A stretch of 56,145 nucleotides of DNA, filler included, from Jimgerdemannia flammicorona (taxonomy: Eukaryota), in assembly GCA_003990765.1 (NCBI GenBank). It is 2 parts of 2 records of this genome, joined end to end, with 100 filler letters (N's around TTAATTAATTAA, not from the genome) between each part and the next. Parts side by side here need not be neighbours in the genome. Positions count along the whole stretch, not along the records: positions 1 to 28,045 come from RBNJ01000586.1; 1 more part is not named here. One strand, written 5' to 3'. Below the pieces are notes generated by a model that was not told the DNA's origin, ran no database searches, and saw only the letters and a list, made by a program, of their open reading frames with translations. The translations under genes and the position numbers were made by a program. Positions 2,381 through 35,179 of this stretch are shown here, in pieces; position 1 is the first letter of the stretch; each line of letters opens with the position of its first letter.

Positions 2381-4279
2381 ATGGCCTGAGATAAGACCCC
2401 CAGGGTGGTGCAGCTGCAGGTGAAGAGAGTATCTATAGTAATGGTGGTTGAGACAAGGAGAAGGGTTGAGGAGGTGATGGCCGAGTATGGTAATGTAGTT
2501 AATATTGGTTTCTAGATTTGAGAGGAGACTACCATCAGGACTGGGAATATTGATATCAGGATTTGACTAGCAGAAAGAGGCCACTGGGAAGATGAGTGAC
2601 TGACCAGCAGTGATACTTTGGGAGGCTTTCAGCTATCAGGTCTTGAGGGTGAAAGGGAGTGAGGAGGAGGAGGAGGACCTACTGAAGGCTATGAGTGGGG
2701 CTGTTGAGCAGAGAACAAAGGTCTGGAAGGAATTTGTCAAGTCAACACACTTAGAAATTGTAGAGGGGAAGCATATTTACACTGACAAGAGGTAGTGGGA
2801 GCAGGCCCAGGAGTGCAGGAGGCAGAGGGAGCTTTTGGTAAGTATAAAAGGAGGGGTAGAGAAGAAGGTGGAGGGGACTGAGGAGGTGAGAGGCATCAAA
2901 GCCAGTATCTAGACCAGTAAGAAAGGAGAGGAGGTAGAAGTGAGCAAAGAAGGGGCTGAGAGGATACCAAACAAGGATCATAATACAGATAGTATATTCA
3001 AGGTCTGGGAGCAGGAGTTAGATAGCACTCCCCCCCCTCTCCTTATTAAGAGGGGTCCAGTTGAGAAGAGAGAGGTAGTGGAGAGACTTAGACTTAGTAC
3101 AGAAGGAGCTAAATGTGGATTTGTAGAGAATGGGATTGATATATAACATTATTTCTTATGAACAGTACAACCAATATTTTCTCTTTGAATATGAATGAGT
3201 TAAGGGGGTCTGGGTGATGTAAGAACATTTTTACTTAGCTCAAGAGATTGGAGGCTGATCTTTTTTTACTACAGGATGTATGGTGTGAGGATGAGGATAA
3301 TCAGGTAGAGTGGACTAGGGAATGGGATAGGGCTACTGCTTAGTATAGCAAGGTGGCAATTCTGGTGCAAAAGGGCAGAGGAGACCTGGGGGGAATCAGG
3401 AGCTGGGATGATAGATTGGTCTGAAGAGATTGGTATTGACCTGGGTAGGAGTCAGTAAGAGTTGGCTCCTGCTACTGCCCTGCAGTTAGGGGTGAGAGAA
3501 TTGCATAGATTAAGGAGCTGCTGGAGGGGAGAGTATTCTTGGAGGAAGGAGTTAATGTTCTGGGTGGTGACTTCAATATGGTTTGAAATATGTGCCTGGA
3601 TAGAACTGATGATAGAAGGAATACTGGTGGGAGAAGTGGTGGCCTGGATGCATGGGAGGAGGTAGAGCATCTCAGCTCCTTAGGAAATATGGACAGAATA
3701 TGGTGGAACAACACCAGGGTCTACATATATTGGGTGAATGGATTAGATATGAGGATTGACTAGATACTGACAGCTGAATGTTGGGGTGCTAATGTTTGGA
3801 AGACTTTGGAGGTGGAGTGGTGTCTATGGTTGGATCACTGGAGACTGTTGGAGCAGGAGCAGTTTGGGGGAGTGGAGATGGACCTGGATATTGGTGCCTT
3901 AACTCCTCTCTGCTGGCTGAGAAGGGGTTATAGGACTCATAGATGGAGGACATATAGGCAAAGGTTTATATCTGGAGGCATGAGGATTTATCTGTCAGTG
4001 TTAGGTAGATGAGATTGAAGGAGGCTACAAGGGTTTATTGGAGAGAAGCTGATAGGGAGGCTGGGCAACAGAGGAGGAGATATGTATGGTGTGCTTCAAA
4101 TAGGCTGATGAGACTGCAGATGGAATGAGCTGATCTGCTTTCTTCCATTGAGGTGGAAGATTGGAGGTTAGAGAGGGCAAAATTAGAGATAGTAGATCTA
4201 CAATAAGTGTTGAGAGAGGAGGAAGCAATTCATATATAAGGAATGACTGCCAGATTATAGTGGCAAGAGCTTGAGAAGA
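2381..4279 (+). mobile_element. LINE B, left part: ORF1 remnant and ORF2 start with AP endonuclease, interrupted by Gypsy A2
   Basis: ORF2 start at ~3158 reads MNSTTNIFSLNMNELRG, followed by GGDFN-like and RID motifs. The frame WQELEK resumes as REWPTRYLSRLL at 25554, matching WQGLEEGERPTRFLSQML in the other LINE copy. Confidence 0.85.
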
Positions 4280-4997
4280 TATAAGAGGGTTGCTTTTTAG
4301 AGTAACTATTACATAGTTCTGGAAGGGTTTTCTGGAAGTTCTGGATATTCTGGAAGACCGTTTTCTTAATATCAAGATCAATTTTGTATAGAGTACATCC
4401 TCTATGCTTATTGATTTCAAGATCAAGTTGACATCTCAACCAAAGTCCTTTTTCAGACTAGTTCTGGATGTTCAGAATTTTCTGTATTTCAGGAAGTTCA
4501 AGAAACTAAGACCAGCTTAGTTGAATTAGTGTATTACTATAGACAATACCCAATCAGGAAATTTTATGATAGGGTTAGGAGTGGGACCTAACAGAGAGCA
4601 GATTTACTTAAGAGTAGTTTGTGGGTTATTAAATAGATTTATTTGCTATTCATGATATTGCTATACTAGAAGTAGTGGTGTAAAGGGATATTGTGGGAAA
4701 GTATTCAGGAGTGTTCTTGGATGTCTGAATCTTTAAGTCTGAGATTCTGAGGTCTGATGGAGGGGGTATTTATACTAGTAAGGAGCTATCTAGACTATGC
4801 TAAATATGGGTATAGCACTTAGTGCCTTGTTGAGTCAGAATGCAGTCACATAGTACAAGGGTGATCTGATATATCAAGAGATTGTCTGACTGCTGAGTCA
4901 GTTTACAGTCACTTTATACAAGGCTAATCTAACTATACTATGACTGCTAAGTTATTTATAGATTTAGATGCTATCTGGGTAGTCTTCGATGACATTA

Positions 4998-7055
4998 TGT
5001 AAGAGGGTTGCTTTTTAGGGTAACCATTACGTAGTTCTGGAAGGTTTTCTGGAAGTTCTGGATATTCTGGAAGACTGTTTTCTTATGATCAAGATCAATT
5101 TCGTATGGAGTATATCCTCTACACTTATTGATTTCAAGATCGGGTTAATGTCTCAACCAAAGTCCCTTTTCAGACTAATTCTGGATATTCAGAATTTTCT
5201 GTATTTCAGGAAGTTCAAAAAACTAAGACCAGCTTAGTTGAATTGGCATATCGCTGCAGACAATACCCAATTAGGAAATTTCGTGATGGGGTTAGGAGTG
5301 GGATCTAACAGGGAGCAGATTTACTTAAGAGTGGTTTGTGGGTTATTAAATAGGTTTATTTGCTATTCATGATATTGCTATACTAGGAGTAGTTGTATAA
5401 AGGGATATTGTGGGGAAGTATTCAGGAATGTTCTTGTGTGTTTGAGTCTGAGATTCTGAGGTCTGGGGGAGGGGGTATTTATACTAGTGAGGGGCTATCT
5501 GGACTATACTGAATATGGATGTAGCACTAAGTACTTTGCTGAGTTGAAATGCAGTCATGTAGTACAAGTGTGATCTGATATGTCAAGAAATCGTCTGACT
5601 GCTGAGTTAGTTCAAAGTCACGTTGTACAAGGCTAATCTAACTATACTATGACTGCTAGGCTATTTATGGGTTTAGGCGCTGTCTGGGTAGTCCTCGATG
5701 ACATCACCATTGATTGTATCATCTCTGATGAAGTAGTTGTCTAGGAATAATGGTTCGCGGATTACTTCTCCTTGTTCGCTGAGGTAATAATACATTGGAA
5801 CTTCATCTCTGTCCCACAGGATAGCATCATCTGTCTTGTACACTGGATAAGATGTTGGTGGGTGGAGGAGGGGTACATCATTTTCACTTTCATCAGATTC
5901 ACTGTCTGTATACCTTCTGTAGGTTACAGCACTATGAGTTGCAGGGTTATAGTAAGCTGGTGGCTGTGGTTCATATTGCTCATACTCAGGTGGTGGAGTG
6001 GTTGGTTCGATCTCGAGGGTTGTCTGGAGGTATAGGTTATATTCTCCAGTCTCTTCATTGTAGTTAAAGTAATCGGGGGTGAATGCAGATTAGTATTCAT
6101 GCCAGTGGTCATTGTCCCAATAAGTCTCATATGTTGTTATGAACTATTGTAAGTTCATTGGCAAGGTTGGCGGAGTGATCAGGGTTGGCAGAGATTCTTG
6201 GCTAAAGGTTATGTTGGCATCAGAGGGATCATTGTCTTCTGCTTCATCTTCATCAAAGTGGATTATATCGTAGATGTCCTTCATGGCATATCCAACTTGG
6301 GGCATTTGTAGGATATGATCATTGGGGTGTGGGAAGGTTCTATCTGTGGTTTCGATGTACTTGAGGTACTTCTGGTTGAGTTCTTGTATCATATTGTCAA
6401 TTTGGCCATAGGACAGAGTAGCAACCATTTCGCTGATAGTAACTCGGAGGCGGGGAATAATGGTACTGTACTCATAGAAGATTTCTCGATGTTTGCGGGC
6501 AATGAGCTTCTGGTGTTGAGACATCTGGGTAATATCTGTATCGTAGTGGTGTTCAACCATGTCTTCCAGGAGGCAGCCAATCTGGTAGTAGCTTGAGATT
6601 TGTCTGATTCGGTGAGCCTCGCTAAGCATGTTCAGAGCATTCCATTGGGCTTCCACGAAGTAGAGGAGTGCCAGGCTATGGATATTCATGAGGGGCAGAG
6701 GGGGTGTGGCTTCGTTGACAATGGCATTCCAAATGTCAGTGCAGATATGGTTGTAGATCTCAGTGGTCATATTTGTGTGTTTGGGAGTTATGGTTGTTGT
6801 TTGTTTTGGTTCTGATTTGATGCGTCTCAGTACTTGGTATATATGCATTTGATCCTGATTGGTAAGATTCCATTTGTGTAATCTTGTGTTCTGTGACTTC
6901 ATATTGACTCAGCTTTGTATGCTGTGACTTTGGTTTGACTCAGCTTCATAATCAAGCAGGTGATTTCCAAATTTGTTTGAAGGTCATGTGTGATTTCAGT
7001 GGCTTATTCAGAGGGTGATATGTAATTTCGGTGGCTTAGAGGTTATGCACTTACA
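4998..7055 (-). repeat. A1 3' LTR (2058 bp)
   Basis: Direct repeat of 13576-15570 with TG...CA ends. Minus-strand TATAAATA at 5476-5483 and AATAAA near 5355-5360. Confidence 0.95.
5673..6770 (-). pseudogene. LTR(U3)-encoded ORF of family A, 365-aa consensus, unknown function
   Basis: ORF 6144..6902 continues in frame past a CAG>TAG stop to DYPDSA* at 5673. The sister LTR reads through that codon (ORF 14188..14820). The same 1098-nt length is seen in the solo LTR. Confidence 0.85.
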
Positions 7056-7068
7056 ACTCTCCCCTTCT
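7056..7068 (-). other. Polypurine tract of A1
   Basis: AGAAGGGGAGAGT immediately before the 3' LTR on the minus strand; identical in A2. Confidence 0.9.
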
Positions 7069-7481
7069 TAGCTTTTGACGTCCTCGTCGGGGCCTTCTAA
7101 TTTGTTCTAGTGTTGTTACATCATTTGGGAGGTCAAAAGTCTGGTAAGGTCCATTTTCTCAGAAAGTGGCATGCTTGTAGTATAGTTGCCTAATGCATTG
7201 GATTCACACGTTAAAGGGTCATATGTTCAATGCCATGCGCTGGAAGTGATTCTGATATCATTCACTGCTGGAGAATTTCCTCTAAGACATCTTCTTAAAT
7301 GTCTATGCCTTGTTTCCCACCAGTGGTATAGGGAGTATAGGCTTGCTTTCAGTTTTGCTATTTTTCTAGGGGTCCAGTATTCTTGTCTTGTTTTGCTGAA
7401 TTCTTAGTTTGGTTCACAATAATTATAATGTTTGGGAGGATAATATATAGTATGTGTCAGTAGGTGCAGAGTATTTTGGTT

Positions 7482-10400
7482 TTAGTTGTTCAAGGAATCA
7501 TATTCCTGAACTAGGTCAGTAGCATTCTGGAGATTGGTCTTGGGTTCCCAGGTTGCATCATGGATTGGGTAACCTTTCCATTTGACAAGGTACTCAGGGT
7601 GGTTCTTGTTGCCATGTTTGTTGAGGATCTGCTCAACTTCATACTCCTCTTGGTCATTAATAATGACAGGTGCAGGTGGTTTGGTGGTCCAGTTGGGGAA
7701 TAGTTTGTCATCATTGTCATTATATCACTTGAGACATTGAACATTAAAGACTGGGTGAATCTTAATAGTGTCTGGTAGTGCCAGTTTGTAGGAGGTTGGA
7801 GAGACTTGGGCAATGACTTCAAATGGTCCAATGAACTTGCTGTTCAGCTTTGTAGATGGTCTGTGCTTGAGGTTGTCAACTCGGTATCCTCTGATGTCTA
7901 GTAGGACTTTTTCTCCAATATCAAAAGTTTCTTCATGGCAGTGTTGGTTAACATACTGTGATTGTTGTTCTTGAGCTCGCGATAAATTCTCAATGGCAAT
8001 CTGGCTTAAATTGCACATTCAGAGTAAGAATTCTTCAACAGCTTCGACTGTGGAGGGTTCTTCAGTGGTTCGGATAAGTGTCAAAGGGGTGTTTGGATTT
8101 TGTCCAGTATTGGCAAAGAATGGGGTCATTCCAAGAGAGGCTTGTTTGCTATTGTTGTAGGCAAACTCAACTGCAGTGAGGTGTTCATGCCAGTCATCTT
8201 GTCTGTAGGAAACATAGTTCCTTAGTATTTGTTCCAGAGTTCAGTTCATTCTTTCAGTTTGGCCATCAGATTCTGGGTGAAAGACTGTGAATAGTGCAAG
8301 TTTTGTTCCAAGGTGTGCATGGGGGGCTTTTCAAAAGTGGCTGGTGAATTTCGGATCTCAGTCACTAACAATGATCTTAGGAAGACCATGATAGCAGAAG
8401 ATATTATCAAATAAGAGGGTGGCTATGTCTGGTACTGTTGCAGTAGTGGTAGTAGACACAAAGTGGGCTTGTTTGCTGAGATAGTCTACAAATATAACAA
8501 TTGCATCTTTCCCATTCTTGGTTTGGGGTAGTTGTACAATGAAGTCTATAGAGATTTGTTCCTAATTTGCAGATGGTACTGGGATAGGGTGGAGTAAGCC
8601 GGGTTTTGCTAGTGTTGAGAACTTGTTTCATTGGCAGGCATTACAGGAAGTGATGTAGGTTTTGAGCTGATCTGCCATACAGGGCCAATAGAAGTTTCGG
8701 GAGATAACTTCATAACATTTATCAAATCCTAAATGTCCAGCTGTAGGGGCATCATGACATTTGAATAGGATAGTCCTTCGGAGGTCTCGGTTGTTTGGAA
8801 CATATAGTCTGTCCTTGTAGTAGATAGCATTGTCCTTGAGTTGGTATTGGTTATACCAGATATGCTTGTCAGCATCATCACGTTCAGGATTTCTCGGAGT
8901 GCCTGAGCTTCTTTATCATCAACACATGCTGCAATGATTTGTTCCATGAAAGTGTTGGTAACCAAGGTCAGAGTTTGGATAACCTCTTTGATTGGTGGTC
9001 TGGAGATTGCATCGGCAACAATATTTTCCTTACCAGGGCGATACTGGATTTCATAGTCAAAGTTGGTGAGGACTTTCATCCATCTGGCTTGCTTTTGGGA
9101 AAGGGTAGCCTGTGTCTTGATGTTGACTAATGACTTGTGGTCAGTCAATACAGTGAAGTGTGCTCCTTCTAGATATGGTCACCATTTGATCAAAGTGTCT
9201 ATGATGGCTAGCATTTCCTTCTCGTGAGTTGCGTAGTTGATTTTGGCATCATTGAACTTGCAGGAGTGATAGGCCACAGGGTGTCCTTCTTGCATGAGCA
9301 CTGCTCCAAGAGCTAGGTCAGAGGCATTAGTAGTGACTTCATATGGTAGGGCAGGATTTGCTGCTTGAAGTACTGGAGTGGTTATCAAGGCATCCTTCAG
9401 TGCTTGAAAGGTGGTATCTTGCTTGTATCCCCAATTTACAAGATTGTTGAAGTCTTTCTCTTATTTCATAGTCCAGGATTGTTCTTGTTTCTTACTGTGT
9501 TTGGTCATTTGGGTGAGGGCAGTAGTGATATTAGCAAAGTTGGCAACAAATCGCCTGTAATAGTTTGCTAATCTCAGGAATGACTGGAGGTCTTTCAGCT
9601 TCTTAGGTCTGGGCCAATCCTTGATTGCAGAGGTTTTGCTGGGGTCCACTTTGATTCCATTTGGAGTGACAATGTGTCCAAGGAATTGAATTTCTTTCAA
9701 GAGAATTTTGCACTTGCTGAGTTTTGCAAAGAGTCGGTTTTCTCGGAGTTTCAGTAGTACTAGTTCAAGGTGTTCGAGATGTTCCTCCAGGGTTTTGCTG
9801 AAGACTAGGATGTCGTCAATATAGACAACAATGAATTTGTCTAGGTATGGATGCAGAATGGTATTCATCAGTATCTGGAAGGTTGCTGGAGTATTAGTTA
9901 AGCCAAAGGGCATAACCAGGAACTCGAAGTGTCCATAGCAAGTTCGGAAAGCTGTCTTGTAGATGTCTTCTTCTTTCATGGCAATTTGCCAGTAACCATT
10001 TCATAGGTCAAAAGAGCTCATGAATTGTGGGTTGGTGAGCCTATCGAATATTTCATCAATCCTCAGTAGTGGGCAACAGTTCTTGATGGTCTGTTCATTG
10101 AGATCGTAGTAGTCAATACACATTCATAGGTCTTCTCCTTTCTTAACAACGAAGAGGACTAGTGCACTATAGGGTGATATGCTGGGTCTGATGAATCCTT
10201 GTTCTAGGAGTTCATCAATTTCTTTCTTGAGTGCATCGATTTCTCTCAAAGACATGTGATAGATTGACTTGAAGGCTGGTTTGGCATCTGGGATAGTCTT
10301 GATTGCATGGTCTACTGCTCATTTGGGAGGTAGGCCTTTCGGGAGCTTCTTTGGGAATATGTCTCAGAATTTCTAGAGTAGTGGTCTGACATGGCTGTCA

Positions 10401-12613
10401 ACTTTGGAAAAATCTTCTTCAGAGTTCTTGGGTTCTCCTTTGGATGGTCGGATGGAGATGGTAAAGAGAGGGCATTTCTTGGCCAATTTCTTGAGTTGTA
10501 GTTTGTTGATGTGGGTGATCTTTGGTCCAGGGTCACTAGAGTTGAGTGAGTCCTTTTCGCCTTGTAGTTTGAAGTTGTGGCATCCTTTCTTGATGGTCAG
10601 AGAATAGTTTACCAAATCGATCATGGGGTTCTCTTGTTTCAACCATAGAGTTCCAAGGATGATTTCATTGTCAGGGAGTGGTATGATCTGGAGGGTAACA
10701 TATACTCGATAGTCACCAATTCGGAAGGGTAGGTTGCAGACAGCTTTGCTAATAATATGTGAGGTTCCATCAGCTATAGCAACTGCTTGAGTTTGCTGTA
10801 CTGGAGAGGTAAAGACCTTGAGTCTGTTGGCTGTCTCTTCATTGATGAAGTTGCCTGAGGCGCCACTGTCTATCATAATCTTGACAGGTGCTCTGTTGAC
10901 AAAAGCCTTAAGGGTGAGCAGTTTGTCTGATCCGATGGTGGTGATTTTAGTTGTAGGAGCCTTTCTTCTGTTGGTTCTTCTTTGAGCCAGTTCATTGACA
11001 CAAGAGAAGCAATCGTCAATCATTCGGGAAGAGTACATTCCAATACTATCAGGGCATCGGCCACTTGATACATATCCATCTTCGATCTTCTTGTAGAATT
11101 GTTCTTCTTTGCTCATGGTAGGTTGGGCTGGGGCTTTGTTTGATGAGCCAAATTCTTTGAATCCTCAGATGGTGGGCAGTAGTTCAGGGACTTCTTTGAC
11201 TGTCAGGGTTGACTCAATTTTTTCAAATAGGATCTGGGCAATGCAGAAACCAATAGAGATCTTGAAGGGTATCCAACTGTGGTTTCGGATGAGGACAATA
11301 ATTTCGCCTGTATAATCCTCGTCAATGACTCCTCCTTCTACTGAGAGTCCTTTCAATGCTAGGCTGCTGCGACAGCATATTCTTCCAACATGTCCTTCAG
11401 GGATTTGGAAACTGATTCCTGTGTAGACTTGTTTGACTTCTCGGTTAGAAACTGTAGCTTCTTCAGCTGCATACAGGTCATATCCAGCTGCTTTTTGACT
11501 TCCTTTGGTTGGGGCCTTAGCAGTTTGTCTTAACTTGACAAAGTCTAGTGTTCTGGTGGTCAGGTTGTTGAGGTGGTGAAGAGTGGTAACAGTTGCTCAT
11601 ATTGCTGTTCAGGGTTTTCGGTTGGGGCAGGTACTGGCCATGTATCCTGTCTTTCGGCAATAGAAGCATGCTCCACTTCTTCGAAGTTCATTCCTTTCGC
11701 CTTCAGTAAGTTTCTTGAAGGTACTTGGCTGGGTGGATTCATGATTTCTGGGTGTCCAAGAGGTGGATGTGGAGGGAGCTTGGGGTGCTACATGCCTAGG
11801 TTCTTCTTTCTTGGTCCAAGTCCTTTTCTTGTTGTTGAATTGTCTTCAAGGCAGAATTAGTCCAACTGTTAGGATTTGCTTGACCATAGTCTTGATTCTT
11901 GCCAGGCACCATTGTTGGTGATCACAACCAACTGGGCGGCCTTGTTCTTGGATTTTTCTAGTAAGCCATTCAGGCAGGGCATCGAATAAATGGTCTGCTC
12001 TTGTACCATTTCGTGCTTCATCATTGGCAATATATCCTAGGCCAACAGTGTTCAGGAGTGACTTGAGTTTTGTACAGAAGGTTTCGAATTCTTCTTTGCC
12101 ATATATGTCAAATTTGAGGTTGCGGAGTTTTACTTGAGATTCAGCAATCATGGTTTCACTGCAGTATTGAGCAATCATGAGTTGTTTGAGTCCAGGGGCT
12201 GCAGGATAGGCTCCATATCCTGGGGTATTGTTTGCTGCATTCTGGGCAACTAGTGCAGGTCGGGTATCCCATGTGAGGGGTTTTTCAGGAAGAGTTCACC
12301 ACCATTCTTCGGCAGGTCCTTGGAAGAATATAACAACTCAGTGGACATAGGCTGTAGTGGTAGCAAAGAGTTGTTCCAGAGTGTGCTCTTGATTGTTTGT
12401 CAGAATGCGGTCAGCAACTCGCTCATTAGTCCATTGATTGGCTTCGAAGTTGGTGTCAACTATACTAATGAAGCTTTGGACTTCTTGTACAGTACCAATA
12501 AAGGTAGGTAGGCTCAGATTTTTGGTAGGTCGGGTCTGTTCAGCTAGGGCAGTAATGGTTTCTGCCATTATAGCTACTTGGGCTGTGAGGTCTAGAATCT
12601 GTTGGTTCACTAT
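7482..12613 (-). pseudogene. gag-pol: A1 gag-pol: Gag, CCHC knuckle, dUTPase, Cys module, protease, RT, RNase H, integrase, chromodomain
   Basis: Motifs CFYCRKTG(Y/H)MASTC; GYDL, RSSLA, GGVIDEDYTGEI; MIDSGASGNF; KTAF, MPFGLTN, YIDDIL; TNASDLALGAVL, ADAISR; GPF(EV); EYEVEQIL...[17 protein letters not shown]. Many TGA/TAA/TAG stops from C>T changes. Confidence 0.95.
11145..11550 (-). pseudogene. dut: Trimeric dUTPase domain of A1, between nucleocapsid and protease
   Basis: AAGYDLYA, RSSLA, GGVIDEDYTGEI, IAQI and (R)GFKEFGSS correspond to the five dUTPase motifs; in frame with the zinc knuckle. Confidence 0.9.
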
Positions 12614-13557
12614 GTTGTTTACTGGAGGCAGTTGGACTGCTGATAGTGGTGTTACTGGTACTACTTGAGGTACTGGTGCTGAGTGTGATGGGGTTCTTTG
12701 GGTCTGTGTAAGTTGCTGGAGTAGTAGTTGTGGGTCTGGAGTGAGGGCTTGATAGATAGCTGTTTGTTGCTGTGTAGGTATATTCTGTCCTGATGGAAGT
12801 GCGTCTCCTTCAGTAGTGTATCTGGGATCAAATTTACTGAGATACTCCTCCTCTTCTTCGGTTTGGTCCCTGTATAATTGGGTTTGTTCAGCGTCAAAGT
12901 AGACAGAATCAGTTATATATTTGATTTCAGATGGACTTAATTCAAAGTCAAGTTCAGATTCAGTATTGGTTTCAGATTCAGGTAGGGCTGTAGCAGGGCC
13001 TGCTTCAGGTTCGGGGTCAGATAGTTGATGAAGAGTTTCTCTTGCTTCTTCTTTAAGGATATGGCGGGCCTTGCTGTTCTGGAATCGGTAGTATAAGGTG
13101 GTCTTGGTCCTGGTGCATTGAAAGTCAGTAGAGTTGAGCCACTTGGCTACAGAGGCTTGGGCTTCATGAGGAACTAAGGCTAGAAAGACTACTGCTGATT
13201 GTCCTAGGTCACTCAGATTTGTGGAGCTGACAAAACTCTTGTTGAGAAGAGTAAAGAAGGCTTCAATAAGACCTTCTTCATCTTGACTTGCTGGGTGTAG
13301 TGCAAGGAGTTCGATGAATAGAGTTTTGCCTATTTGTTGGTTTAACTGGAGTACTTCTTTCTTTGAATGAAGTTTGTCTCACTTGTTGTAGGTGTGGAGG
13401 TCAAATTGTCCTTGTACGTTAGGTTCAATTCTCTCCAGATTGTCAGATGGTTCAGGATAAATTCCAGTTCAGAGGTTGGGCTTTATACCAACTTGTAGGA
13501 ATTCTCAGAGTGGTTTGTAGTGGGGTGAGGAAGCATCTTGAAGTGGAATTGGATTGT

Positions 13558-13575
13558 AAACCACTGCTACTAAGT
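13558..13575 (-). other. Primer-binding site of A1 (probably initiator tRNA-Met)
   Basis: ACTT(A/G)GTAGCAGTGG follows the 5' LTR. TGGTAGC (intact in A2) is complementary to the GCUACCA end typical of eukaryotic tRNA-iMet. Confidence 0.75.
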
Positions 13576-15570
13576 TGTAAGAGGGTTGCTTTTTAGAGTA
13601 ACCATTACGTAGTTCTGGAAGGTTTTCTGGAAGTTCTGGATATTCTGGAAGACCATTTTCTTATGGTCAAGATCAATTTCGTATAGAGTATATCCTCTAC
13701 GCTTATTGATTTCAAGATCAGGTTGACGTCTCAACCAAAGTCCCTTTTCAGACTAATTCTGGATGTTCAGGATTTTCCATATTTCAGGAAGTTCAAGAAA
13801 CTAAGACCAGCTTAGTTGAATTGGCGTATCACTGCAGACAATACCCAATTAGGAAATTTCGTGATGGGGTTAGGAGTGGGACCTAACAGGGAGCAGATTT
13901 ACTTAAGAGTGATTTGTGGGTTATTAAATAGGTTTATTTGCTATTCATGATATTGCTATACTAGGAGTAGTTGTATGAAGGGATATTGTGGGGAAGTATT
14001 CAGGAATGTTCTTATGTATTTGAGTCTGAGATTCTGAGGTCTGGGGGAGGGGGTATTTATACTAGTGAGGGGCTATCTGGACTATGCTGAATATGGATGT
14101 AGTACTAAGTGCTTTGCTGAGTCAGAATACAGTCACATCATACAAGGCTAATCTAACTATACTATGACTGCTAAGCTATTTATGAGTTTAGGCGCTGTCT
14201 GGGTAGTCCTTGATGACATCACCATCAATTGCATCATTTCTGATAAAGTAGTTATCTAGAAATAATGGTTCGTGGATTACTTCTCCTTGTTTGCTGAGGT
14301 AATAATACATTGGAACTTCGTCTCCGTCCCACAGGATAGTATCGTCTGTCTCATACACTGGATAAGATATTGGTGGGTGGAGGAGGAGTGCATCATTTTC
14401 ACTTTTATCAGATTCACTGTCTGCATACCTTCTGTAGGTTACAGCACTACGAGTCACAGGGTTATAGTAAGCTGGTGGCTGTGGTTCATGTTGCTCGTAC
14501 TCAGGTGGTGGGGTGGTTGATTCGATCTCGAGGGTTGTCTGGAGGTATAGGTTGTGTTCTCCGGTCTCTTCATTGTAGTTGAAGTAATCGGGGGTGAATG
14601 CAGATTGGTATTCGTGCCAGTGGTCATTGTCCCAATAAGTCTCGTATGTTGTTATGAACTGTTGTAAGTTCATTGGCAAGGTTGGTGGAGTGATCAGAGT
14701 TGGCAGAGATCCTTGGCTAGAGGTTATGTCGGCATCAGAGGGATCATTGTCTTCTGCTTTGTCTTCATCGAAGTGGATTATATCGTAGATGTCCTTCATG
14801 GCGTATCCAACTTGGGGCATTTGTAGGATATGATCATTGGAGTGTGGGAAGGTTCTATCTGTGGTTTTGATGCACTCGAGGTACTTCTGGTTGAGTTCTT
14901 ATATCATATCGTCAATTTGGCTGTAGGACAGAGTAGCAACCATTTTGCTGGTAGTAACTTGGAGGTGGGGAATAATGGTACTGTACTCATAGAAGAGTTC
15001 TCGATGTTTGCGGGCGATGAGCTTCTGGTGTTGAGACATCTGGGTAATGTCTATATTGTGGTGGTGTTTGACCATGTCTTCCAGGAGGCAGCCGATCTGG
15101 TAGTAGCTTGAGATTTGTCCGATTTGGTGAGTCTCGCTAAGCATGTTCAGAGCATTCCATCGGGCTTCCATGAAGTAGAGGGGTGCCAGGCTATGGATAT
15201 TCATGAGGGGCAGAGGGGGTGTGGCTCGGTTGACAATAGCATTCCAAATGTCAGCACGGATACAGTTGTAGATCTCAGTGGTTATATTTGTGTATTTGGG
15301 AGTTGTGGTTATTGTTTGTTTTGGTTCTGATTTGACACATCTCGGTACTTGGTATATATGTATTTGATCCTGATTGGTAAGATTCCATTTGTGTAATCTT
15401 GTGTTCTGTGACTTCATATTGACTCAGCTTTGTATACTGTGACTTCAGTTTGACTCAGCTTCGTGATCAAGCAGGTGATTTCCAGATTTGTTCAGAGGTC
15501 GCGTGTGATTTCAGTGGCTTGTTCAGAGGGTGACATGTAATTTCAGTAGCTTGGAGGTTGTGCGCTTACA
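13576..15570 (-). repeat. A1 5' LTR (1995 bp; 63-bp deletion relative to the 3' LTR), with LTR-ORF copy at 14188-15285
   Basis: Aligns with 4998-7055. ORFs 14899..15417 and 14188..14820 are one frame broken by CAA>TAA. TATA box at 14054-14061 (minus). Confidence 0.95.
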
Positions 15571-17353
15571 CATCACCATCGATGACATCATCTCTGATAA
15601 AGTAGTTGTCTAGGAAGAGGGGTTCGTGGATTACTTCTCTTTATTTACTGAAGTAATAATATATTGGAACTTCATCACCATCCTACAGGATAGCATCATC
15701 TATCTCATATACTGGATAAGGTATTGGTAGGCAGAGGAGAGGTGTATCATCTTCACTTTCATCAGATTCACTGTCTGTATACCTTCTATAGATTATAGCC
15801 CTATGAGTCATAGGGTTGTAGTAAGCTAGCAGCTATGGTTTGTCTTACTCATACTCAGGTGGTGGAGTGGTTAATTTGATCTCAAGGGTTGTCTGGAGGT
15901 ACAGGTTGTGTTCTCCAGTCTCTTCATTATAGTTAAAGTAATTGGAGGTAAATGTAGGTTGGTATTCATACCAGTGGTCATTGTCTCAATAGATCTCATA
16001 GGTGGTTATAAACTGTTATAAGTTCATTAGCAATGTTGGCAGAGTGATCAGGGTTGGCAGAGATTCTTGGCTAGATGTCATGTTGGCATCAGTGAGATCA
16101 TTGTCTTCTGCTTCATCTTCATCAAACTGGATTATATTATAGATATTCTTCATAGCATATCCAACTTGAGGCATTTGCAAGATATAGTTGTCAGAGTGTG
16201 GGAAGGTTCTGTCTGTGATCTCAACATACTCGAGGTACTTGTGGTTGAGTTCTTATATCATGTCTTCGATTTGACCATAGGATAGGGTAGCAGCCATTTT
16301 GGCAGTAGTAACTTGGAGATGGGAAATAAAGGTGCTATACTTGTAGAAGAGTTCTCGGTGTTTGCAGGCAATGAGTTTCTGGTGTTGAGACATCTGGGTA
16401 ATGTCCATATCATGGTGATGTTCAACCATGTCTTCCAGGAGGTAGCTGATCTGGTAGTAGCTTGAGATTTGTCTGATTTGGTGGGTCTCGCTAAGTATAT
16501 TCAGGGCATTCCATTGGGCTTTCACAAAGTAGAGGGGTGCTAGACTATGGATATTCATGAGGGATAGAAGGGGTGTGGCTTGATTGACAATGGCATTTCA
16601 AATGTCAGCACAGATGTGGTTGTAGATCTCAGTGGTTATGGTTGTGTATGTTCAGAAGTTGTAGTTGTTGTTTGTTTTGGTTCTCTGTTCGATGTGTCTC
16701 GGTACTCAGTATATATACATTTGGTCCTGATTGATAAGATTCTGTTTATGTAATTCTTGTATTCCATGACTTCATATTGACTCAGCTTTGTGTACTATGA
16801 CTTCAGTTTAACTCAGCTTTGTGACTGAGCAGGTGATTTCCAGATTTGTTCAGAGGTTGCATATGATTTCGGTGGCTTGTTCAGAGAGTGATATGTAATT
16901 TCAGTGGCTTGGAGGTTGTGCGCTTACAACTCTCCCCTTCTTAGTTTTCAACATCCTCATTGGGACCTTCTAATTTATTCTAGCATTATTACACTATTTG
17001 GAAGGTCAAAAGTCCAGTGAAGTCCATTTTTCTCAGAAAGTGGTATGCTCATAGTACAGTTGCCTAACATATTAGATTCACATGTTAAAGGGTCATGTGT
17101 TTAATGCCATATACCAGAAGTGATTCTGATGTCATTTACTGCTGGAGAATTTCCTCTAAGGAATCTTCTTAAATGTCTATGCCTTATTTCCCACCAGTAG
17201 TATAGGGAGAATAGGCTTGCTTTCCATTTTGTTATTTTTCCAAAGGGTCAGTATTCTCTTAACTTACTGAGTTTTTGATTTTTTGCTCATGATAATTATA
17301 ATGTTCAGGAGGATAATATATAGTGTATACTGATAGGTGTTGGATATTTGGTT

Positions 17354-23521: not shown

Positions 23522-25548
23522 TGTAAGAGGGTTGCTTTTTAGAGTAACCATTATGTAGTTCTGGAAGGGTTTTCTGGAAGTTCTGAATATTCTGAAAGAC
23601 TGTTTTCTTAAGGTTAAGATCAATTTTGTATGGAGTATGTCCTCTATGCTTATTGATTTCAAGATCGGGTTGACATCTCAACCAAAGTCCTTTTTCGGAC
23701 TAGTTCTGGATGTTCAGGATTTTCTGTATTTCAGGAAGTTCAAAAAACTAAGACCAGCTTAGTTAAATTGGCATATCACTGTACACAATACCCAATTAGG
23801 AAATTTCATAATGGGGTTAGGAGTGGGATCTAATGGGGAGCAGATTCACTTAAGAGTGGTTTGTATGTTATTAAATAGGTTTATTTGCTATTCATGATAT
23901 TACTATACTAGGAGTAGTGGTGTGAAGAGAGTCTGAGATTCTGAGGTCTGGGGGAGGGGGTATTTATACTAGTAAGGGGCTATCTAGACTATGCTAAATA
24001 TGGGTGTAGCACTTAGTGCCTTGCCGAGTCAGAATATAGTCATGTAGTATAAGGGTGATCTGATATATCAAGAGATCATCTGACTACTGAGTCAGTTCAC
24101 AGTCATATCGTACAAGGCTAATCTAACTATACTATGACTACTAAGTTATTTATAGGTTTAGATACTATCTGGGTAGTCTTCAATGATATCACTATCAATA
24201 ATATCATCTCTGATAAAGTAGTCATCTAGGAAGAGGGATTCATGGATTACTTCTCTTTGTTCACTGAAGTAATAATACATTGGAACTTCATCACCATCCC
24301 ACAGGATAGCATCATCTGTCTCATATTCTGGATAAGGTGTTGGTGGGTGGAGGAGAGGTGCATTGTCTTCGCTTTCATCAGATTCACTATCTGTATACCT
24401 TCTATAGGTTACAGCACTATGAGTCGCAGGGTTGTAGTAAGCTGGCAGCTGTAGTTCATCTTGCTCATACTCAGGTGGTGGAGTGGTTGATTCGATCTCA
24501 ATGGTTGTCTGGAGGTACAGGTTGTGTTCTCTGGTCTCTTCATTGTAGTTGAATTAATCGGAGATACATAAATGCAGATTGATATTCATGCCAGTGGTCA
24601 TTGTCCCAATAGGTCTCATAGGTGGTTATGAACTGTTGTAAGTTCATTGGCAATATTGATAGAGTGATCAGGGTTGACAGAGATTCTTGGCTAGATGTCA
24701 TGTCGGCATCAGAGGGATTATTGTCTTCTGCTTTGTCTTCATCAAATCAGATTATATCATAGACATCCTTCATAGCATATCTGACTTGAGGCATTTGTAA
24801 GATATAGTCATCAGGGTGTGTGAAGGTTCTGTCTGTGGTCTTGACATACTTGAGGTACTTGTGGTTGAATTCTTGTGTTATGTCTTCGATTTGACTATAA
24901 GATAGGGTAGCAACCATTTTGGCAGTAGTAACTCGGAGACAGAGAATAAAGGTGCTATACTTGTAGAAGAGTTCTCGGTATTTGTGGGCAATGAGTTGCT
25001 GGTGTTGAGACATCTGGGTAATGTCCATGTCATAGTGGTGTTTGACCATATCTTCCAGGAGGCAGCTGATCTAGTAGTAGCTTGAGATTTGTCCAATTCA
25101 GTGGGCCTCACTAAGTATGTTCAGGGCATTCCATCAGGCTTCCCCAAAGTAGAGGGGTGCTAGACTATGGATATTCATGAGGGGTAGAGGGGGTGTGGCT
25201 CGATTGACAATGGCATTCCAAATGTCAGCATAGATGCAGTTGTAGATCTCAGTGGTCATGGTTGTGTATGTTCAGAAGTTATAGTTATTGTTTGTTTTGG
25301 TTCTCTGTTTAATGTGTCTCAGTGCTCAGTATATATGTATTTGGTCCTGATTGGTAAGATTCCATTTGTATAATTCTTGTATTCTGTAACTTTGTATTGA
25401 CTCAGCTTTATGTACTGTGACTTCGGTTTGACTCAGCTTCATGACTGAGTAAGTGATTTCCAGATTTGTTCAGAGCTCATGTGTGATTTCAGTGGCTTGT
25501 TCAGAGGGTGACATATGATTTCAGTGGCTTGAAGATTGTGTGCTTACA
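23522..25548 (-). repeat. A2 5' LTR (2027 bp) with decayed LTR-ORF
   Basis: TGTAAG...CTTACA ends. ORF 24747..25049 matches the LTR-ORF core. Confidence 0.95.
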
Positions 25549-28045: not shown

Positions 28046-28145
28046 NNNNNNNNNNNNNNNNNNNNNNNNNNNNNNNNNNNNNNNNNNNNTTAATTAATTA
28101 ANNNNNNNNNNNNNNNNNNNNNNNNNNNNNNNNNNNNNNNNNNNN
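28046..28145. other. Assembly gap with artificial all-frame stop linker
   Basis: 44 N + TTAATTAATTAA + 44 N = exactly 100 positions. Confidence 0.95.
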
Positions 28146-28197: not shown

Positions 28198-31100
28198 AGA
28201 GCTCTAAGGAAAGGGTATACAGGATGGGTGATAAAGAATCTCTCTATAGTATCCCACAATCCAGAGGAAAGATTACACCTCTGTGACCATTGACTACCAA
28301 TGCTGCCTGACTGTCCTCCAGAAGACTTATAAGCAACCTCCTGAACTCTGGGGAAACACCCACCTGCTTCAGCACCCCCTCTAGCCAGACCCTCCTCACT
28401 CTGCCATATACCTTCTCCTAATCTAGAAACACCAATTGGCCATCAACCCTGGTAGCCCGAGCCCCTTCAATCACTCCATGGACCTAGGCCATCCCATCTC
28501 GAATCAACTGACTACTAACAAATCCTCTTTACTCGACTCCCAGTATCTGCTGAGTGATCCCCTATAGCCTAGTCACCAAGACCTTTATCACCAGCTTGCA
28601 GTCCATATCAAGGAGTATGATCAGATGCCAGTTCTTCCAATCTTCTCTTTTTCTCTTATCTTTATAGAGCAAGGAGACCAGCCCTAGATGCTGGCCCCCA
28701 ATCCAAGTTCCTGACTGAAGAACCTCATCACACATCCCCGTCAACTCCTCCAGTACTACCTCCACTCTGGCCATCTTCTTCCAAAAATCCCAGAGAAGCT
28801 GTAAGAGGGTTACTTTTTAGGGTAACTGTTACATAGTTCTAGAAGGGTTTTCTGGAAGTTCTGGATATTCTGGAAGACCATTTTCTTATGGTCAAGATCA
28901 ATTTCATATGGAGTATGTCCTCTATGCTTATTGATTTCAAGATTGGGTTGACATCTCTACCAAAGTCCTTTTTCGGACTAGTTCTGAATGTTCAGGATTT
29001 TCTGTATTTCAGGAAGTTCAAGAAACTAAGACCAGCTTAGTTGAATTGGCGTATTGCTGCAGACAATATCCAATTAGGAAATTTCGTGAGAGGGTTAGGA
29101 GTGGGACCTAACAGGGGGCGGATTTACTTAAGAGTGATTTGTGGGTTATGGAATAGGTTTATTTGCTATTCATAATATTGCTATATTAGGAGTGTTTGTA
29201 TAAAGGGGTATGAGGGGGAAGTATTTAGGAATGTTCTTGTGTGTTCGAGTCTAAGATTCTGAGGTCTGGGAAAGGGGGTATTTATACTAGTGAGGGGCTA
29301 TTTGGACTATGCTAGATATGGATATAGCACTAAGTGCTTTGCTGAGTCGGAATGCAGTCATATAGTACAAGTGTGATCTGACATGTCAAGAGATTGTCTG
29401 ACTGCTGAGTCAGTTCACAGTCATATTGTACAAGGCTAATCTAACTATACTATGACTGCTAGGCTATTTATGGGTTTAGGCACTGTCTGGGTAGTCCTCA
29501 ATGACATCACCATCGATTGCATCATCTCTGATGAAGTAGTCATCTATGAATAATGGTTCGCGGATTACTTCTCCTTGTTTGCTGAGGTAATAATACATTG
29601 GAACTTCGTCTCCATCCCCCAGGATAGCATCATCTATCTCGTAGGCTGGATAAGGTGTTGGTGGGTGAAGGATGGGTGTATTGTCTTCACTTTCGTCAGA
29701 TTCATTGTCTGTGTACCTTCTATAGGTTACAGCACTATGAGTTGCAGAATTGTAGTAAGCTGGTGGCTGTGGTTCATGTCGCTCGTACTCAGGTGGTGGA
29801 GTGGTTGGTTCAATCTCGAGGGTTGTCTGGAGGTACAGGTTGTGTTCTCCGGTCTCTTCATTATAGTTGAAGTAGTCAGGGGTGAATGTGGGTTGGTATT
29901 CATGCCAGTGGTCATTGTCCCAATAAGTCTTGTATGTAGTTATGAACTATTGTAAGTTTATTGGCAAGGTTGGCAGAGTGATCAGGATTGGCAGAGATCC
30001 TTGACTAGAGGTCATGTCGGCATCAGAGGGATCATTGTCTTCTACTTCATCTTCATCGAAGTGGATTATGTCATAGATGTCCTTCATGGTGTATCTAACT
30101 TGGGGCATTTGCAGGATGTGATCATTGGGGTGTGGAAAGGTTCTGTCTGTAGTTTCGACGTACTTGAGGTACTTGTGGTTGAGTTCTTGTATCATGTCAT
30201 CGATTTGACCATAGGACAGGGTAGCAACCATTTTGCTAGTAGTGACTTGGAGGTAGGGAATAAAGGTGCTGTACTCGTAGAAAAGTTCTCAATGTTTGCG
30301 GATAATTAGCTTCTGGTGTTGAGACATCTGGATAATGTCTGTATCATGGTAGTGTTTGGCCATATCTTCCAGGAGGCAGCCAATCTGGTAGTAGCTTGAG
30401 ATTTGTCCAATTCGGTGGGCCTTGCTAAGCATATTCAGAGCATTCCATCAGGCTTCCACAAAGTAGAGAGGTGCTAGGCTATGGATATTCATGAGGGGCA
30501 GAGGGGGTGTGGCTCGGTTGACAATAGTATTCCAAATGTCAGTATGGATATGGTTGTAGATCTCAATGGTCATATTTGTGTATTTGGAAGTTGTGGTTGT
30601 TGTTTGTTTTGGTTCTCTGATTCAACACATCTCGGTACTCGGTATATATGCATTTGGTCCTGATTGGTAAGATTCCGTTTGTGTAATTCTTGTGTTCTGT
30701 GACTTCGTATTGACTTAGCTTTGTATACTGTGACTTCTGTTTGACTCAGCTTTGTGATCAAGCAGGTGATTTCCTAGTTTGTTCAGAGGTCGCATGTGAT
30801 TTCAGTGGCTTGTTCAGAGGGTGACATGTAATTTCAGTGGCTTGGAGGTTGTGCACTTACAGAAGCCCATCTTCCCCTGGAGTTATCCCCTTGCTCATTA
30901 AAGCCAGGACCTTGCAGACTTCCTCCCCTCTCACTGAGTCCCCCAGAGCCCCTAGGCCCATTGCTGGGTTTGGATGCCAACCCTCCAACTGCCATTCAAT
31001 GTTCAAGACAACTTCACTCCCATCTTCCTCACTCCATAGGTCCTTACAGTGGGATCTTAGCAATTCCAGAATTACTGGAGTCCCCACCACCATCTCCCCC

Positions 31101-34100
31101 TCCTCATCCAAAAGATCATCCCACTACTGCTTAGTTCTCTGCACTTATAACATCTGTGATAAGAACCTAGTGGGTCTTTCTCCCTCCTCCAACCCTTGCC
31201 ACCTCAACCTTGCTATCATCCCCTTCAATTTAACCTCTTTCTCTAATCATATCACCTTCTTAAGCTCCTCAACTTCCTTTTGAATCCTCTCAATCTGCCA
31301 ATCTACTACCACTCTATCTTCTAGCATGCCTGCCCATCTCCCCAGGAGTGCCACCAGCACCAGCCACTGTGAGACCCAATGCACTCTCTGCTACTACTGA
31401 ATACTCCTCCCCTTCCCTGTCTCCCTCTAATATCTCTGAGCACTTGATTTCAGCCTCCTCCAACAATCTCCAATTACCAGTTCCTGCTCCTGCCACTGAC
31501 TGATTTTCCCAATGACCTCCAACTCCCAAGCAGCCTATAACTCACCATCCTCCAATAAAGAGGAATTCAGTCTCCAATGTCCAGGCCCATCCCCACTTCC
31601 CCCAAACCTCTCTCCCCCAAGCAGACCCTACCATCCAACCCACTACTTCAGCCCCTCATTCCTCTCTCACTATCGGTCCTGTCCACTACATTATCCCATA
31701 CTATATTGAAATCCCCCCCCAGGCAGTTGATCCCAGTCTCTCTCATAACACTAGCCTCTTACAAGTTCCTAATCTAGTCCACTCACTCCCCCCTCTCCAC
31801 TAGGTAATAGCATGACCCAACCATCAAAGGGCTCCATCCAGGCCTCTTCTATATTCCCTACACCAACCAACTCCCCTAATGTCCTATATCACCAATATGT
31901 ATCTCCCATCCCCTTTCAGACTAGGATACCCACCTGCCCAGACCACACTGCTGCTCCCCCCCACTCTCTAGTCCAATTCTGGAAATCCATATCTGCTTCG
32001 TAACATACATCCTGCAGTAAGAAAAGATCTGCATCCAGTCTCTTTAGCTATCCAAATAAGTACCTCCTCCTAGCTGCCCCCTGTAACTCATTTATATTCA
32101 AAGAGAATATTTTAGTTGTACTATTCATATTGAAGAATGTTTGAATTTAAGACCCCAGTCTAGTATTCCATGCTCATCTCATCCCCAGCCAGATCCAAGT
32201 ACTGCTCTGCTTCCAAGTCACCCTCTGCAACCATCTGAGCATCCAATGCCTCCAAGATTTCTTGACATTCCACCCCATTCACCACCTCTATCTCCGCCCA
32301 ATAGTCCATGCAGACCACTCTCCACTTCTTCAATCTCTTTCTCGAGCTCCACAAGTATGTTGCCTGGTTATTCGCAATCCCTCTAAGTTCCTCCTCTCTC
32401 TGATCATTGACTTGGTATTCAACTGATTCCAAGAGGACTGCCAGAATCTCATTCCGCACCTTTCTCAGTACCTCCTCACTATGAAGGATTTCCTCCCAAT
32501 GCCTCTCTTCCATAACCTGGAAGTCCTCTCCTCCCAGCTCCTCTGCTGCCACCCCTTCCAGAGTCTTTCACAGCCACTTCTCCTCATCTACCATCTCTGC
32601 CATACCCTGGGTGATCTGATCACCCCCCACCTCTAGGTCCACCAAAGCACTCCTCCTCACCAACTCATCCCACTCCTTATCCGGTACATCCAGTAACTCC
32701 TCCTCCCCCCCTGTCCCACCTGAGACACTATACTGACGGTGTACTCCTTTACTCATTTCTGCATCTACCTCCACACTGTCCTCTCTCTCCTCTCTTGGTC
32801 CATTCTGTGCCCCATCTTGGGCCATCCCACTTCCCCCCACCCATGCACTCTCACACAATCCTACTCTCTCATCCTCTGTGCTGCTGCCAGCTCCACTGCC
32901 ACCCAACTTCCCCAGCAGCTCCTTCTGGATCCTCCTCCCCTGCATCTTCTCTCAGGTCATCTGATCCATCCTGATCCTCTTCCTATTGACTACTTCCACC
33001 ACTATCTTAGCCTCATACTCCTTCCAAGCCAATCTCCTCCTCTCGACCACACCCACCAAATCCTCCAGAGCCTCAAGCAAATCTTTCTCCTCTTCCTGAG
33101 TCCTCTTCACCCATGTGACCTTGCACTCCACTGGTCTCCACTTTAGCATCACCAGCCAATCCCTTGTCTTCCCCATGTTTTCCTTTTCAGCCAGCCTCAC
33201 CCAGATGTTGATGTCACTAGTCCAGAGCTCTGTACCCTCCCAGACCTTGAACCCAATGTCCACAATCTCTCCATACTCCTTGACCACATCCACAATCAAC
33301 TCCCTGGCTCTCTCCCTTAATACCATAGGAAGATCCAATACCATCAACTGTACCACTCGGAGGTCCCAGTGCATGTACCTGGCCATAGAGACCACAACTC
33401 CACCCACCACCACCCCCTTCTCCATAGCAGCCAGCAATGCCTCCTCCTCCTCAAACCCCATCTCAACCCCTTCTTTCTCCTTCAAAAACTTCACTGATGC
33501 TGCCCCTTTTACCTCCTGCACCACCAGCCCTAAGATCATCCTTGCAGTCACCACTAAGCCCCTGAAACACAGTGTGACAGCAAATTCCAACCTTGATTTC
33601 TTGAGTAATGGTGCCAATACCATACCCATCATCCCATCTGCCAGGTCTCTGGGCCTCGTGCCCACCCCCTGTCCTGAACCATCAACTACCATCATATCTA
33701 AAATTTTTTTCCAAATCTCCAGTCACAGCTCCATCAACAGTCATATCTCCAGCCCCTACTTTCCCCCCTCTCCTACCACCAGACACTCCCCCAGGCACTC
33801 TTCCCTGTCCCCCAGCAGTAGCTGTTGATGCCTTCCCCAGGCCCAGTCAACCATCCAGACCAGAGGTCATTTTCTCCATCTTGACCTTGTTAGCAAAGGT
33901 CATCCTCTCCTCTCCTCATTATCTCAGGCTGCCCCTCTCTCCACCACCAGTACCTTGGCCAGCCATAGAGGCCCCTGACATCTCCAAACCATCTCCCCTT
34001 CTCCCCACTTGCTGTCAGTCAAAGACACCACTGCCCCCCTGGCCAGCCTGCTCACTAGTATGATCATTGCCATCTATGTCAATAGTCATCTATCACTAAA

Positions 34101-35010: not shown

Positions 35011-35179
35011 GTAGAATATAATAAGTCATACTTGGTGAAACTTGATAGAACATTATAGAGAGTCACTAATCATCAATTAGTAATTGATAGAATCTTGGTA
35101 GAACTATTTAGAAAACAGATTCTTAGTAAATGGCTAAGTAATTCTATACTATTCTAAGCTATTCTGAAATATTCTACTA

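Follow-up and report, generated by a model that had tools for sequence, protein, structure and literature searches.

Long terminal repeats (LTRs) are regarded as promoter and terminator modules without coding content, which annotation pipelines mask and exclude from the search for genes; in Gypsy elements they are normally non-coding. A vertebrate retrovirus, mouse mammary tumor virus (MMTV), carries in its sag gene a sense open reading frame (ORF) of about 320–365 codons that lies wholly in U3 (the unique 3′ region of the LTR), and that occurs twice per provirus and once in solo LTRs; the product, Sag, is a type II membrane glycoprotein. The foamy-virus Tas/Bel1 and lentiviral Nef proteins are encoded by accessory genes at the 3′ end of the genome that overlap U3; the Tas gene is served by an internal promoter of its own, and the protein carries an acidic activation domain at its C-terminus. 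To our knowledge, a selected gene lying wholly in U3 is textbook material for MMTV sag alone. Here we describe ORF-A, a 365-codon frame inside the LTR of a Ty3/Gypsy element (family A) in a stretch of Jimgerdemannia flammicorona DNA (GenBank assembly GCA_003990765.1) that consists of two joined parts and measures 56,145 nt, hereafter called the window; ORF-A is very probably a real, element-borne gene that has been maintained for the propagation of the element.

Additional open reading frames (aORFs) of LTR retrotransposons include the env-like genes of Athila and Bagy2, gene23 of Grande, and the frames of RIRE2, Retand and Boty (PMC7264820, in excerpts). According to the same excerpts, these aORFs belong to the internal region, where most of them follow pol and precede the 3′ LTR, and either orientation, sense or antisense, occurs (PMC7264820). 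A figure legend on fungal chromoviruses marks an “add. ORF” for which overlap with the LTR is possible (PMC2864245). Searches of open-access text by phrase turned up no description of a retrotransposon gene placed within the LTR.

An Open Reading Frame Inside the LTR

The window consists of repeat-rich eukaryotic DNA, in which positions 4279–25548 are occupied by two copies of a single Ty3/Gypsy element, one nested in the other and both on the minus strand. The family A LTR, 2058 bp long with TG..CA ends, is present in five copies: the sister LTRs of element 1 (A1, A2) and of element 2 (A3, A4), and a solo LTR (A5; Table 1). All five carry at the same place a sense ORF of 365 codons plus TAA that starts 285–289 nt into the LTR and, in A1, ends 190 nt before a TATAAATA box and 675 nt before the end of the LTR. 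Five LTR copies with the same sense ORF between the start of U3 and the TATA box had been claimed in an earlier reading of this DNA from the sequence alone (the original prediction), and exactly this arrangement, between the LTR start and TATAAATA, was seen in A1–A5. A primer-binding-site-like sequence and the polypurine tract abut the LTR ends on the outside, and thus ORF-A is located entirely within the LTR; in every family A LTR it lies in sense orientation wholly inside U3, an assignment that derives from the TATAAATA box and not from mapped RNA ends. The frame thus lies outside the internal region between the LTRs, the typical placement of aORFs, and is present even in the solo LTR A5.

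Every copy has decayed to some extent. Stop codons occur at 16 codon positions of ORF-A; at 14 of these the other copies have CAA, CAG, CGA or TGG, and in the other two cases, each a stop of A4, the counterparts are CAC and TAC. Three stop positions recur among non-sister copies, as expected at hypermutable sites, and none of the 16 is common to the sister LTRs of either element; every ORF-A stop therefore postdates insertion, and the frame was intact when both full elements inserted. In this respect the original prediction, which had noted stops at CAG, CAA, CGA and TGG codons that differ between sisters and had argued for an ORF intact at insertion, was borne out on each point. Only one indel (4 nt, in A4) was found in ORF-A over five copies of 1098 nt, vs. 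several in the non-coding parts of the LTR. The three best copies have 1–3 stops in the ORF-A frame vs. 13–35 in the other sense frames; in 2000 shuffles of the A2 copy, the mean number of stops was 17 and the minimum 5, and two or fewer stops occurred in 0 of 2000. A chance open frame is excluded. At the three codon positions, ORF-A has a base composition similar to that of gag and reverse transcriptase (RT).

Selection on the Encoded Protein

Since the two LTRs of an element start out identical when it inserts, differences between sisters were taken to represent neutral post-insertion decay with the local mutation spectrum; pre-insertion sites were defined as those at which the two LTRs of element 1 agree, the two LTRs of element 2 agree, and the elements differ. 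Over the whole of ORF-A, the ratio of non-synonymous to synonymous changes (N:S) was 24:51 before insertion vs. 150:57 after it (odds ratio 0.18, Fisher p = 1.1e-9), with 16 stops among the 150 post-insertion non-synonymous changes. The original prediction had named a dN/dS (omega) near 1 among pre-insertion substitutions as an outcome that would refute it; omega for ORF-A is about 0.18, within 0.1–0.2, and far from that value. It had also called for the exclusion of CpG sites, and the signal stays when only non-CpG sites are counted (15:35 pre vs. 79:21 post, p = 9e-9). Both parts of the frame contribute: the N:S ratio for the N-terminal 175 codons was 11:32 pre vs. 76:24 post, again significant, and for the remaining codons 13:19 pre vs. 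74:33 post (p = 0.006). Against a transitions-only neutral expectation of 732:357, the bias persists (p = 6e-10).

The distribution over codon positions follows the same pattern. Pre-insertion changes fall on positions 1, 2 and 3 in the proportion 14/4/55, post-insertion changes in the proportion 92/50/65, and the other two frames of the region show the opposite codon-position skew. If sister LTRs had decayed in parallel or undergone gene conversion, the only effect would be to dilute this signal. The ORF-A protein was under purifying selection while the element lineages diverged.

Relatives and Population Data

A word-indexed search of 5.8 billion proteins returned one match to ORF-A, and a HMMER scan of 1.84 billion representatives returned three, of which two are genuine (P0001 and P0002), both singletons. 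P0001 is a protein of 247 aa on a 998-nt metagenome contig that is open throughout; it has 66% identity to ORF-A residues 115–365 and ends in the same ..YPDS motif. P0002 has 128 aa, matches ORF-A residues 1–128, and has Arg where the window copies have decayed CGN codons. Both appear to be copies that belong to the element family of ORF-A. The third match, P0003 (E = 3.2e-4), was rejected as spurious; it is a tandem-repeat protein of which 37 residues were matched. Neither a host gene nor a fused form homologous to ORF-A was found by HMMER in the 1.84 billion representatives. A match to an ordinary host gene fragment without conservation in other element families was another outcome that the original prediction had named as refuting, and just element-like matches were obtained; ORF-A thus combines presence in 5/5 LTRs with the lack of a host homologue in that protein set, the combination by which an aORF is recognized.

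A search of metagenome contigs with the ORF-A alignment gave 585 pattern matches, none of them confirmed, and an exact 18-nt ORF-A motif occurred in metagenome contigs at 12 loci, with ORF-A or its LTR in 0/12 (tblastn, blastn). Contigs from four soil-metagenome DNA runs show family A at high copy number. In the majority of them CAA stands opposite the TAA at codon 227 of A1, and the depth reading G at position 6092 in the four runs was 195/208, 63/67, 68/86 and 37.5/37.5. None of the 12 soil-run indels listed, out of a set with seven more, lies inside ORF-A.

A decayed, AT-rich sequence related to the N-terminal half of ORF-A is also present in the window (Table 1). Its mismatches to A1 are C>T or G>A in 106 of 151 cases, a pattern that appears to reflect repeat-induced point mutation (RIP-like) or heavy deamination, stronger than in the main LTR copies. 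The regions 35000–40000 and 54000–56145 have 25–34% G+C. A short ORF (M I S K E E I Q K E I G F E Y W ..), possibly a piece of a host gene, is located at 53524–53880 on the minus strand, in a stretch of normal G+C content that adjoins this degenerate LTR-like copy.

The Predicted Protein

The ORF-A protein has an isoelectric point (pI) of 4.27 and no hydrophobic or membrane segment (maximum KD19 1.14). Residues 1–145 are helical in a low-confidence model and not basic (pI 5.6); the N-terminal part is slightly acidic, with a pI of 5.6–6.3 and 11–12 K+R vs. 14–17 D+E. A typical DNA-binding domain would look different, and the tentative reading of the protein in the original prediction, a DNA-binding domain with an acidic activation tail, therefore gains no support here. 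The remainder, residues 146–363 (218 aa), holds 46 acidic residues, 7 basic residues, 33 aromatic residues and 24 prolines; the acidic, aromatic-rich composition given in the original prediction was recovered, with the acidic run FDEDEAEDND and an aromatic-rich C-terminal half. This half is matched motif by motif in P0001 (66% identity) and is itself under selection; it is a specific module, not a loose tail. An acidic, aromatic module of this kind is compatible with a role in activation or chromatin binding. PPxY-like motifs in the C-terminal half (PPEY, PPAY) were considered as a functional lead and discarded; they are not kept in P0001.

None of the database and structure searches pointed to a fold or family. 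Pfam contained no family matching ORF-A, and the best E value in a PDB sequence search with the ORF-A and ORF-B profiles (ORF-B is described below) was 0.31. ORF-A residues 1–207 had no usable match in the ESM Atlas; the Atlas model of P0001 had a predicted local distance difference test (pLDDT) score of 0.39, and all template modeling (TM) scores were 0.30 or lower. AlphaFold2 with a six-row ORF-A alignment gave a mean pLDDT of 33.7, too poor for a fold search. Fold prediction used only natural copies, in which stops were entered as X, and alignments that were shallow.

Candidate Signals and Expression

The stretch between the TATATA box and the ATG of ORF-A is free of other ATG codons in A1, A3 and A4, and contains one ATG in A2 and in A5, where A1 has ACG. 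Taken with the positions of the two boxes and of the polyadenylation signal AATAAA (Table 1), this arrangement suggests that each LTR could be its own small transcription unit for ORF-A, a proposal to which we give about even chances. The conserved TATATA, 73 nt before the ATG, would start an ORF-A transcript whose leader lacks other ATGs in the undecayed state; the transcript would pass ORF-A and end at the LTR’s own AATAAA, giving an mRNA of about 1.5 kb, for which the 5′ LTR, the 3′ LTR or a solo LTR could serve alike as source. The downstream TATAAATA box would drive genomic RNA, in which ORF-A would be found solely in the 3′ untranslated U3.

The product would be a soluble, very acidic protein (pI 4.3), with a helical N-terminal part and a conserved C-terminal half of acidic and aromatic character, that acts in trans in the nucleus; its target would be the expression or chromatin state of the element itself, which it might influence as an activator or anti-silencing factor. 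A transactivator or anti-silencing factor is a reasonable guess; as a functional assignment, a transcriptional or anti-silencing role of the ORF-A protein remains tentative, and we place it on the unlikely side.

A Second LTR Gene

The original prediction had asked whether other element families show conservation of such a gene. A positional counterpart, ORF-B, was found in the LTRs of another element (family B), without significant sequence similarity to ORF-A. In family B, TATAAAAG is located 88 nt before the ATG, followed by an ATG-free leader of about 90 nt, ORF-B, a TATAAATA box about 174–210 nt past the stop, and AATAAA; the order of LTR start, TATA, ATG-free leader, ORF, TATAAATA and AATAAA is the same as for ORF-A. 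Like ORF-A, ORF-B is an orphan, with a predicted helical N-terminal part and an acidic C-terminus. Six intact homologues were found in metagenomes, with 58–85% identity and a common C-terminal ..DEAPxxLNFLL. The two ORF-B copies of the window are separated by four indels of 15, 3, 33 and 3 nt, and the frame is kept in both. Pfam contained no family matching ORF-B, and AlphaFold2 with an eight-row alignment reached a mean pLDDT of 42.4, too poor for a fold search.

The elements that carry the two genes are distant from each other. They share about 36% identity in RT, and inspection of family B revealed no chromodomain ORF; the dUTPase precedes the protease in family A (dUTPase region 11168–11596, minus strand) and follows it in family B (44177–44935, plus strand), which suggests independent acquisition or rearrangement. 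No target duplication was found in the flanks of the family B element; its LTRs may thus derive from separate insertion events, in which case recombination between two insertions would have produced the element.

Host Elements and Other Features of the Window

The internal region of element 1 has Pfam matches to RVP_2, RVT_1, RT_RNaseH, Integrase_H2C2, SH3_Tf2-1, Chromo (8.2e-18) and dUTPase (3.8e-31); the order of protease, RT, RNase H and integrase, with a chromodomain at the C-terminus, is that of a chromovirus. The direct TG..CA LTRs, the primer binding site after the 5′ LTR, the polypurine tract before the 3′ LTR, and the short target duplications, which for element 2 are TCTCC/TCTTC (5 bp), are those of a Ty3/Gypsy element. 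In RT/RNase H searches, identity was 50–54% to metagenome polyproteins and 40–48% to plant and charophyte elements. Chromoviruses bearing a dUTPase are reported in fungi (PMC2864245, in part). Together with the RIP-like AT-rich stretches and the occurrence in soil runs, this points to a soil fungus as the probable host.

Sister-LTR identity is 93.0% for element 1 vs. 87.9% for element 2, as would be expected if the nested element 1 is the younger, and in agreement with the nesting order. Variable columns of the family A LTR alignment comprise 417 transitions vs. 44 transversions. The insertion point of element 1 is in the last ORF-A codons of the 3′ LTR of element 2, with the 5-bp target duplication TGATG/TAATG at 4993–4997 and 15571–15575. 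Two runs of 44 N (sequence masked or not resolved), at 28046–28089 and 28102–28145, lie beside the solo LTR A5. A repeated G+C-rich sequence at 2–1222 and 32160–34063, both on the minus strand, contains long related ORFs (e.g., ..VDVGFKIWEGTEL..) that match no Pfam family; it is probably another unclassified repeat.

Table 1. Coordinates of the family A and family B features in the window.
Feature	Position	Strand	Remarks
LTR copy A1	4998–7055	−	3′ LTR of element 1, 2058 bp, TG..CA
LTR copy A2	13576–15570	−	5′ LTR of element 1
LTR copy A3, first part	15571–16928	−	3′ LTR of element 2, split by nested element 1
LTR copy A3, remainder	4279–4997	−	other side of element 1; target duplication TGATG/TAATG
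LTR copy A4	23522–25548	−	5′ LTR of element 2
LTR copy A5	28800–30861	−	solo LTR, perfect 5-bp target duplication GCTTC/GCTTC
ORF-A in A1	5673–6770	−	ATG at 6770, TAA at 5675–5673, 365 codons; stops at codon 209 (TAG) and codon 227 (TAA)
ORF-A in A2	15285–14188	−	start decayed to ATA, 1 internal stop
ORF-A in A3	from 16639; last 29 nt incl. TAA at ~4992–4964	−	8 internal stops
ORF-A in A4	25259–24158	−	4-nt insertion, 5 stops in corrected frame
ORF-A in A5	30573–29476	−	3 internal stops
TATATA box	6838–6843	−	73 nt upstream of ORF-A ATG, 5/5 copies; candidate promoter
TATAAATA box	5476–5483	−	190 nt past ORF-A stop; presumed genomic RNA promoter and U3/R border
AATAAA	5355–5360	−	123 nt after TATAAATA; presumed LTR poly(A) signal
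Internal region of element 1	7056–13575	−	gag, CCHC, dUTPase, protease, RT, RNase H, integrase, chromodomain; stops and frameshifts
Polypurine tract AAGAAGGGGAGAG	7057–7069	−	adjoins 3′ LTR of element 1, upstream side
Degenerate AT-rich relative of ORF-A N-terminal half	54185–54693	−	tblastn 53% + 46% identity, residues 24–205
Family B 5′ LTR	40377–41870	+	TATAAAAG at 40532, TATAAATA at 41633, AATAAA at 41660
ORF-B in 5′ LTR	40620–41459	+	279 codons, 1 internal stop
Family B 3′ LTR	47576–49080	+	
ORF-B in 3′ LTR	47819–48640	+	273 codons, 1 internal stop

Discussion

Several observations weigh against the view that ORF-A is an active, element-serving gene whose product acts on transcription or silencing. 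All five copies in the window are now broken, and two rare, low-depth soil-run contigs have deletions within ORF-A; the comparison of pre- and post-insertion changes is based on two elements only. The runs with family A sequence are soil-metagenome DNA, with small shares of it, and no RNA run is among them; a TATATA match near an ATG is weak evidence, as such hexamers are common. The non-basic N-terminal part speaks against the direct DNA binding that the predicted transcriptional role might involve, and ORF-A appears to be without a fold, domain or function-known relative in Pfam, PDB and the Atlas. Finally, homology between ORF-A and ORF-B is not significant, either by hhalign (E = 0.19 and 0.048, probability at most 1%, the N-terminal alignment being collinear and non-significant) or by a Smith-Waterman shuffle test (z between −0.9 and 0.2); the layout that they have in common may therefore be convergence or coincidence.

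The protein could render a service of another kind, as a cofactor of particle assembly or nuclear import, or as an antagonist of RNA silencing, cytosine methylation or repeat-induced mutation. Selection and conservation would suit whatever benefit the protein brings to its element, and the N-terminal domain lacks a basic character. The copies also lie in a genome with strong C>T and G>A decay (transitions to transversions 417:44), which implies that there is a host defence of this kind to counter; yet no motif or fold points in this direction, and an env-like version is contradicted by the lack of a membrane segment. A non-transcriptional function of this sort is a serious possibility, though an improbable one on balance.

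A different question is which RNA carries the gene. If the TATATA box were the promoter of the genomic RNA, a very long R (the part of the LTR repeated at both ends of the RNA) would contain ORF-A, which would then head the full-length RNA as its first cistron and recur at the other end, instead of forming a separate unit in U3. The retention of TATATA in 5/5 copies at 73 nt from the ATG, with a leader that is ATG-free in the undecayed state, is consistent with this arrangement too. R of LTR elements is typically short, whereas an R of about 1.5 kb would be required here, together with translation of gag after a 365-codon ORF; moreover, the canonical TATAAATA followed by AATAAA past the ORF in both families is the usual arrangement of U3, R and U5 (the unique 5′ region). 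We consider the long R unlikely; the proposed layout with two promoters places TATAAATA at the start of the genomic RNA.

The gene might also be a passenger, a captured host gene fragment that resides in the LTR and owes its apparent conservation just to the youth of the copies. LTR retrotransposons are known to capture genes, and captured genes are described as occurring in one or few copies (PMC7264820, in excerpts); ORF-A, by comparison, is found in 5/5 LTRs and has a relative at 66% identity, without a homologue outside element-like copies in the 1.84 billion representatives, and the substitutions that arose within the LTR are strongly biased toward synonymous ones. The neutral-passenger reading is largely refuted and has a very small residual probability. 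The remaining explanation, that no protein is made and the open frame reflects constraint on U3 regulatory DNA or RNA structure, is refuted: enhancers do occur in U3 regions, and the rate of fixed differences in ORF-A (71/1070) is not below that in the 285 nt upstream (17/285), but the 14/4/55 spread over codon positions in one frame only, and the avoidance of stops and indels, would be left unexplained.

For ORF-A as a selected gene within the LTR, a wider proposal can be formulated. The LTR might act as a self-contained gene, with one promoter for an acidic trans-acting protein and a second for the genomic RNA, and every LTR in the genome, with the many solo LTRs among them, would be a potential source of a factor by which the family stays active or escapes silencing. 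The presence of the same layout in two unrelated families suggests a recurrent strategy of LTR retrotransposons, and one that would be undescribed. As a whole we regard this proposal as doubtful. Should the ORF-A protein control how its own family is expressed or silenced, this would represent a new kind of transposon counter-defence; solo LTRs would not be inert and would still be able to express protein after the body of the element is lost, and the system would provide a handle on how giant, repeat-rich genomes keep their elements active. ORF-A and ORF-B in themselves constitute new orphan families without detectable relatives.

Compared to known systems, ORF-A is most similar in placement to MMTV sag; both are sense frames of similar length that are located wholly inside U3. 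Unlike Sag, the ORF-A protein has no hydrophobic segment, and no family or PDB sequence match links it to a known protein; the host element also differs from MMTV, as a chromodomain Ty3/Gypsy element without env. With the genes of Tas and Nef, ORF-A has in common that it is an accessory gene past pol that lies in or overlaps U3, and the layout of Tas is the one proposed for ORF-A; in contrast, the Tas and Nef genes start in the internal region, whereas ORF-A starts and ends within the LTR, no likeness in sequence or fold was found, and the N-terminal part of ORF-A is not basic. Like the aORFs of LTR retrotransposons, ORF-A is an extra, family-conserved gene in a Ty3/Gypsy element with no relatives outside transposons; unlike them, it is located inside the LTR itself.

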